Source of the DNA: an uncultured Chlamydiae bacterium
GTDB lineage: Bacteria; Chlamydiota; Chlamydiia; Chlamydiales; JAJFMA01
Assembly (NCBI GenBank): GCA_963713615.1
Contig: CAVQMM010000001.1
Span: 2,112,001 to 2,176,000, forward strand
Reading direction: 5' to 3'
Length of the DNA stretch: 64,000 bases
The position numbers and the translations under genes were made by a program. Shown here one piece after another: positions 33,086 to 33,189 of the stretch (positions are counted from its first letter, which is position 1; each line of letters opens with the position of its first letter). Below the pieces are notes generated by a model. It did no database searches, had not been told where the DNA came from, and worked only from the letters and a program-made list of their open reading frames with translations.

Positions 33086-33189
33086 ATCAGCTAGATACGG
33101 CAGGTGATGCCAACAGTAGGCCTTGAATCCTAACCACCCGTTTCCCCCCGGAGACGTCGCTATACCATCACCATACCGTATGAGCTGAT
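33086..33189 (-). ncRNA. Candidate structured ncRNA, ~104 nt, family unknown
   Basis: Long terminal stem with G-U pairs that work only on the minus strand, two apical hairpins, followed by a U-run. Confidence 0.5.

Follow-up and report, generated by a model that had tools for sequence, protein, structure and literature searches.

A lineage-restricted structured RNA candidate upstream of rluD in environmental chlamydiae and its predicted pairing with a distant transcript end

The region upstream of rluD in the genome of an uncultured Chlamydiae bacterium (source genome, hereafter G000) contains a stretch of about 104 nt which is capable of folding into a long bulged rod. The question raised by this locus is which RNA, if any, is encoded there. 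The first-pass annotation of the window (the whole 64,000-nt stretch of DNA analysed) proposed a single-copy structured RNA with two arms resembling a tRNA elbow, as in Y RNA-like tRNA mimics, and with a loose likeness to 6S RNA. The comparisons described below support a conserved, structured and probably non-coding RNA. Its conserved core is complementary to the end of a distant transcript, which points to a likely undescribed regulatory RNA and not to a tRNA mimic. The parts of the element are as follows.

33086..33189, minus strand: candidate structured RNA with a long bulged closing stem and an apical region (ends putative)
33144..33160, minus strand: conserved G-rich core and predicted pairing region, the only block of invariant columns in the four-way alignment
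33146-33149, minus strand: GGGG loop, inside the hairpin 33139-33156
33117..33132, minus strand: second hairpin with a UUCAA loop (the 'T-arm' of the first-pass annotation), not conserved

The minus strand of 33086-33189 has an MFE of -41.4 kcal/mol (z -2.73), and 1 of 200 shuffles was equally stable. All helices named previously are found on this strand at the positions given for them and are reproduced by the MFE structure, although the AUAG/CUGU helix is missing from the centroid. The hairpin CGUCUCC-GGGG-GGAAACG is present but contains a C-A mismatch on the minus strand, and the trailing UUUU is a real U run which reaches 4 nt only by counting the last paired U (33086-33083). The strand had been assigned from G-U pairs. 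The minus strand is indeed favoured, but the G-U pairs are indecisive in the source genome: the plus strand folds well too (-35.8, z -5.45, a better z than that of the minus strand), so G000 alone leaves the strand unfixed. The z-scores also favour the plus strand in the related genome G001 and, slightly, in G004. The preference for the minus strand comes mainly from the folding of the counterpart in G003 (-35.8, z -4.39 on the minus strand vs -18.4, z -2.03 on the plus strand) and from the 3' U tracts which follow the closing stem on the minus strand in G003 and G004. The element is single-copy, as had been claimed: a search of G000 returned one full copy, the locus itself, and a single 16-nt match elsewhere. 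A dispersed repeat of the REP or MITE kind was ruled out by this result (one full genomic copy, the 16-nt core twice). The absence of an Rfam family was likewise borne out, with no match to the element at E<=10.

That the element is a tRNA-elbow mimic of the Y RNA kind, or the chlamydial 6S RNA, is hardly credible. The G000 element shares a closing stem and an apical branched region with the bacterial Y RNAs (YrlA/YrlB); the UUCAA loop and the lack of an Rfam 6S match in the whole-genome search of G000 also speak for this reading. However, the UUCAA hairpin, on which the supposed elbow depended, is missing from G003, and G001 and G004 have unrelated sequence in its place. The candidate is devoid of conserved D/T-loop elements, ARAGORN called no tRNA at the RNA locus, and TROVE/Ro60 was found in none of the five genomes G000-G004 (79-99% complete), with the controls positive in 2 of 14. 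The resemblance to 6S RNA (RF00013) turned out to be incidental. Both share a long bulged closing stem, but the candidate (104 nt vs a ~180-nt rod) has about half the length and no central bubble with a terminal stem, and gives no match to the family at E<=10. A better 6S candidate lies elsewhere in the same genome.

G000 C1:3236220-3236410 (locus L188:121-311), plus strand, outside the window: probable chlamydial 6S RNA

This ~190-nt region matches the 6S model over its full length, although below threshold (15.4 bits, E 0.64), and has a closing stem. Weak Rfam 6S matches were obtained in 4 of 31 genomes, and three of them map to this one region of G000, which aligns with G002 (29.9 bits), G024 and G029 in conserved blocks and in a matching genomic region. 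By sequence and synteny it is probably the chlamydial 6S RNA missed by the Rfam cut-off, and it therefore fills the 6S slot of G000 better than the candidate RNA does. A syntenic 6S-like RNA lying under the Rfam cut-off across chlamydiae may matter more broadly. The SRP RNA (RF00169) was also considered for the candidate and rejected, the SRP RNA of G000 being located instead at C1:491271-491370 (48.7 bits).

Counterparts of the element were sought in other genomes. In a BLAST-type DNA search of 41 genomes the sole match over the RNA was in G003 (71%, E 0.027), directly upstream of rluD. Among the upstream regions of rluD in the best 30 of 56 genomes with an rluD match (one locus being only 96 nt long), the core CGYCTYCGGGG is present in four, namely G000, G001, G003 and G004, and the three relatives carry rod counterparts there with minus-strand z of -3.51 (G001), -4.39 (G003) and -2.36 (G004). 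The rods are ~85-125 nt long. Their stems have turned over among the four genomes and barely align, and the apical core CGYCUYCGGGG with its G-rich loop alone is kept. Since the stems do not align, RNAalifold recovered only 3 pairs from the four-way MAFFT alignment. In an unfitted three-sequence alignment 77% of the cells pair under the G000 structure, and 7 pairs are changed on both sides, against 3 or fewer in slid controls; 25 of 500 shuffles scored as high, and the stem covariation is marginal. A covariance model built from three sequences gave matches in 3 of 100 scored genomes (one genome was unscored), all of them training members. G004 was not recovered by the model (8.5 bits, partial), and its membership is assigned from synteny, core and fold only.

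Across 301 genomes the core pattern with one mismatch allowed is matched in 23, about as many as with the reversed control, and no rod outside the family was found by inspection of these matches. The one-mismatch matches in G211 belong to a repeated element present on seven contigs (L060, L075, L081 and others), close to contig ends and with the same flanks in each case; it resembles the end of an insertion sequence, without relation to the RNA. A metagenome scan for rluD relatives yielded six loci, and none of the five having upstream DNA carries the core. The genomes in which the RNA was found are four members of a single family and represent a narrow group among the environmental chlamydiae. 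The four related genomes probably reflect one gain event, and the co-occurrences discussed below, which fall within one clade, are not four independent observations.

The element lies in the following surroundings.

33348..33710, minus strand: small stand-alone WYL-like ORF, upstream (weak match, E 0.068, below cut-off)
33213..33227, minus strand: upstream DNA motif CTTA-N6-CTTTA, ~24 nt before the RNA
33053..33058, minus strand: TATAAT, by sequence a possible separate -10 box for rluD (the promoter scan was silent)
32072..33025, minus strand: RluD-type pseudouridine synthase (Pfam PF00849 and PF01479; TIGR00005 over cut-off)
31510-31758, minus strand: KhpA-type KH protein directly after rluD, 95-99% identical in G001-G004

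The position between a WYL gene and rluD given by the first-pass annotation is correct, but the WYL assignment is weak in G000. The G004 homolog of the ORF passes the cut-off; the ORF has no DNA-binding domain and precedes rluD in G002, G003 and G004. The gene is not tied to the RNA: both are found in G003 and G004, the G002 gene abuts rluD without the RNA, and in G001 a divergent gene stands in place of the WYL-like gene while the RNA is retained and has stayed with rluD despite the rearrangement. Because the upstream gene of G001 is divergent, a local promoter is needed there. The scan for promoters and terminators called none at the RNA locus and found no sigma-70 consensus. The motif CTTA-N6-CTTTA has nine invariant columns in all four genomes, and it is likely a promoter or an operator. 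It is not enriched as a regulon mark would be (16 genomic matches vs 21-30 for control spacings). For the gene at 32072..33025 the best equivalog is NF008385 RluD, which is under its cut-off. A hexamer TAAAAT is situated in G001 at the place corresponding to the TATAAT box, and none is evident in G003. KhpA is an sRNA-binding protein in bacteria without Hfq, and it could chaperone the candidate RNA.

The conserved core has an exact 16-nt complement at 14612-14627, 18.5 kb from the RNA, formed by a C-rich run and the 5' arm of the terminator which ends the pheT/MORN-like transcript.

14645..15619, minus strand: MORN-like 324-aa gene after pheT (weak MORN_2 match, E 0.001, below cut-off)
14589..14634, minus strand: predicted partner, i.e. 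C-rich run, intrinsic terminator and U8 tail (fold -21.9, z -4.67)
14623-14634, minus strand: single-stranded C-rich run, 5' of the terminator hairpin
14612-14622 and 14597-14607, minus strand: 5' arm and 3' arm of the 11-bp terminator stem

Homologs of the MORN-like gene are present in 57 of 61 genomes. Among the 30 listed loci downstream of it (two of which, including that of G002, end at contig ends), the combination of C-run and arm occurs in four, and these are the same four genomes that carry the RNA core (G000, G001, G003 and G004). All 11 pairs of the terminator stem are kept in the four genomes, nine of them invariant and none changed on both sides. According to a review (PMC6582626), the sequence of a terminator stem is not usually conserved, so the conservation of the partner stem implies an outside constraint. 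A scan of all species for the C-rich element gave 33 matches; three of them are followed by a terminator hairpin and add no new sequence, and the remaining 30 look like chance. Rfam gave no match above the gathering score to the elements in seven homolog and partner loci, the whalefall-1 match on the G004 partner (19.7 bits) being far under the cut-off of 37. In another genome (G046, locus L092) the stop codon of the MORN-like gene is followed by a very long, near-perfect inverted repeat of ~150 nt, which may be a MITE-like element.

G000 contains just two copies of the exact 16-mer. The 11-nt core pattern is matched twice in G003, only at the RNA and partner loci, 6 times in G001 and 12 times in G004. 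In a fixed register the cognate RNA and partner form 17, 12, 14 and 14 contiguous pairs in the four genomes (12 in G001). The RNA of G001 makes its 12-pair run with its own partner and only 8 pairs with each other partner: an A-to-G change in the terminator arm of G001 is matched by a U-to-C change in the RNA. A second change in the G001 partner, U-to-C, also meets a matching G in the RNA, but because that RNA position varies among the genomes it is not a clean event. The clean change is compensated inside the RNA's own hairpin as well.

The specificity of the match was evaluated against several backgrounds. In G000 the partner gives the best non-self duplex among 1240 seeded sites (-44.6, the next being -41.8) and the best among 138 terminator-like sites (the next being -33.5), and 0 of 200 shuffled cores reached the value of the partner. 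Shuffling the 104-mer 2000 times never produced a 16-nt antisense match to the terminator-like sites, but in 160 cases a 16-nt match arose somewhere in the genome; since 8% of shuffles match 16 nt genome-wide, the match in a single genome proves little by itself. The cognate partner is not always the best one, as the G000 core scores -49.2 with the G003 partner vs -44.6 with its own. Altogether the antisense partner is well-supported but unproven, with one clean covariation in four related genomes.

According to the predicted accessibilities, opening of the four G costs 0.0 kcal/mol in three of the four genomes and 2.8 in G001, and the C run is open in all four partners while the G run is open in three of the four RNAs. 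An open G loop facing an open C run fits nucleation between a loop and a toehold followed by invasion of the arm. For a 14-nt duplex with the folded terminator the net energies, which leave out extra pairs to the GCCC run, are -8.9 (G000), -11.5 (G001), +1.2 (G003) and +0.3 (G004); with a nascent target binding is favourable in all four genomes (-10 to -20 kcal/mol). A G-rich region complementary to a C-rich RNA region, as in known sponges, is predicted in all four genomes with 12-17 contiguous pairs.

We tentatively favour a separately transcribed sRNA which acts in trans and captures the C-rich 3' end, as an RNA sponge would, although we put this single reading somewhat below an even chance. 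The candidate RNA would be transcribed as a discrete species from the conserved upstream motif. On meeting the C-rich RNA in the cell, its exposed G-rich loop would dock on the single-stranded C-rich run of the pheT/MORN-like 3' end, and the pairing would then invade the 5' arm of the terminator hairpin, so that the C-rich 3' RNA would be sequestered or destabilised. Such a mechanism presumes that the C-rich end is a regulatory 3'-derived RNA in need of a sponge. Judged by its sequence, the C-rich run with the conserved terminator may itself correspond to a 3'-derived sRNA that has escaped annotation and carries an anti-Shine-Dalgarno-like seed. G-rich sequence does occur around start codons in G000: in its 3415 ORFs, 53 in-frame start positions pair with the run at <= -17 kcal/mol (a control-free count).

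The proposed pair has relatives by description among known systems. RosA of Bacillus subtilis and RsaI of Staphylococcus aureus bind C-rich RNAs with single-stranded G-rich regions through G-C pairs (PMC8216469). The candidate would likewise be a stand-alone RNA, with a G-rich region predicted to face a C-rich target. However, RosA is ~229 nt long, has three G-rich regions and binds primary sRNAs, whereas the candidate is a rod of ~85-125 nt with one G-rich loop, it is predicted to target the 3' end of an mRNA, the pairing extending into the terminator arm, and it has no Rfam match to these or any other family. CtrR3 of Chlamydia trachomatis, a 110-nt primary intergenic transcript (PMC2817459), has a C-rich anti-RBS seed, and its listed targets include GGGAGG sites (PMC9426522). 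The C-rich run of the partner resembles this seed as described, but the seed of CtrR3 is placed in a hairpin loop while the run of the partner is linear and precedes a terminator; the candidate RNA itself has the opposite, G-rich polarity. The RNA is not described in the literature searched on sRNAs of chlamydiae and environmental chlamydiae, sponges and trans antitermination (main texts, few subscription journals), in which the sRNA table of PMC2817459 gives coordinates only. Within this scope the element is lineage-restricted, structured and undescribed. Few purely computational candidates come, like this undescribed RNA, with one precise partner that can be tested. Should the pairing be true, an obligate intracellular lineage believed to lack Hfq (PMC9426522) would possess an RNA-RNA circuit of the sponge-like or terminator-targeting kind; the reach of the finding is limited to four genomes of one family.

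Two other arrangements also involve pairing of the two RNAs, and together with the sponge they make such pairing rather probable. It is rather unlikely that the element is a 5' leader or attenuator of rluD-khpA, regulated by a C-rich RNA from the pheT/MORN-like 3' end. Its place directly upstream of rluD on the same strand in all four genomes, kept through the rearrangement of G001, the U tracts after the closing stem in G003 and G004, and the absence of an evident promoter between stem and rluD in G003 are what a leader would predict; against it, G000 and G001 have a -10-like hexamer in the interval from the RNA to rluD, ~60-140 nt separate the start codon from the G-rich core, which forms the tip of a closed rod, and rluD stands without the element in 26 of the 30 listed loci, including that of G002 of the same genus. 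We regard as unlikely a trans antiterminator which would bind the nascent 5' arm ahead of synthesis of the 3' arm and cause read-through antisense to the convergent gene 13745-14479. This gene faces the terminator and is conserved in G001 and G003, the greater part of the 5' arm is included in the pairing, the core is similar to the 3' arm of the terminator itself, and the net binding is favourable to all four nascent targets vs two of the four folded ones. The time window would, however, comprise only ~15 nt of elongation, no read-through RNA was seen, and conservation extends to the C-rich run 5' of the hairpin, which would also fit a seed with mRNA targets. Synthetic small transcription-activating RNAs similarly pair with the toehold and the 5' arm of an intrinsic terminator, but they are engineered regulators whose target terminators precede a gene, while the terminator of the partner ends an operon and faces a convergent gene. 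It is equally doubtful that a natural trans-encoded RNA switches off this terminator by toehold-mediated invasion, its G loop docking on the C-rich run and displacing the 3' arm of the terminator so that antisense read-through over the convergent gene results.

The remaining explanations dispense with pairing of RNAs. The two sites could be same-sense siblings or copies of one DNA motif, left by an old inverted duplication or serving as a shared protein site. Read in the plus direction, the element is rich in C and similar to the partner sequence, the plus-strand z is better in G000, G001 and G004, and a binding factor shared by both sites would also account for the common change in G001. We nevertheless consider this improbable: in G003 the minus-strand fold is much the better one, the U tails belong to that strand, the difference seen in G004 yields a G-U pair in the antisense reading, and the exact 16-mer occurs in G000 only twice, unlike a regulon motif. 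Far less probable still is that fold and complementarity are due to chance, the element being a long terminator-like hairpin after the WYL-like gene. The genome-wide frequency of 16-nt matches among shuffles and the marginal covariation of the three sequences are in line with chance, but the rod persists in G001 without a co-directional gene upstream, and both sites keep the matching sequence in four genomes in which the neighbouring proteins of the relatives are 54-76% identical to those of G000.

In peat metatranscriptome runs the organism is represented by scattered, low-depth, near-identical contigs, which carry no ends or strand and may derive from DNA. A contig of 392 nt (32915-33306), found in one of the four runs, spans the RNA and both flanks; because it covers both flanks, it gives neither the ends of the RNA nor its strand. 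A discrete RNA was seen neither here nor at the partner locus. Another contig, from a single run only, stops at 14631.

Two further regions of the window were noted.

34117-34965, plus strand: IS110-family transposase, within a stretch of ~8.7 kb (~33711-42385)
18532-19557, plus strand: two tandem genes, presumably nucleoside-diphosphate-kinase-like

The stretch ~33711-42385 lies between the WYL-like gene and the gene normally found upstream of it (42386-42730), which are adjacent in G002, G003 and G004, and the transposase at 34117-34965 has no match in the loci of the relatives. Both genes of the tandem pair are found in G001 as well.
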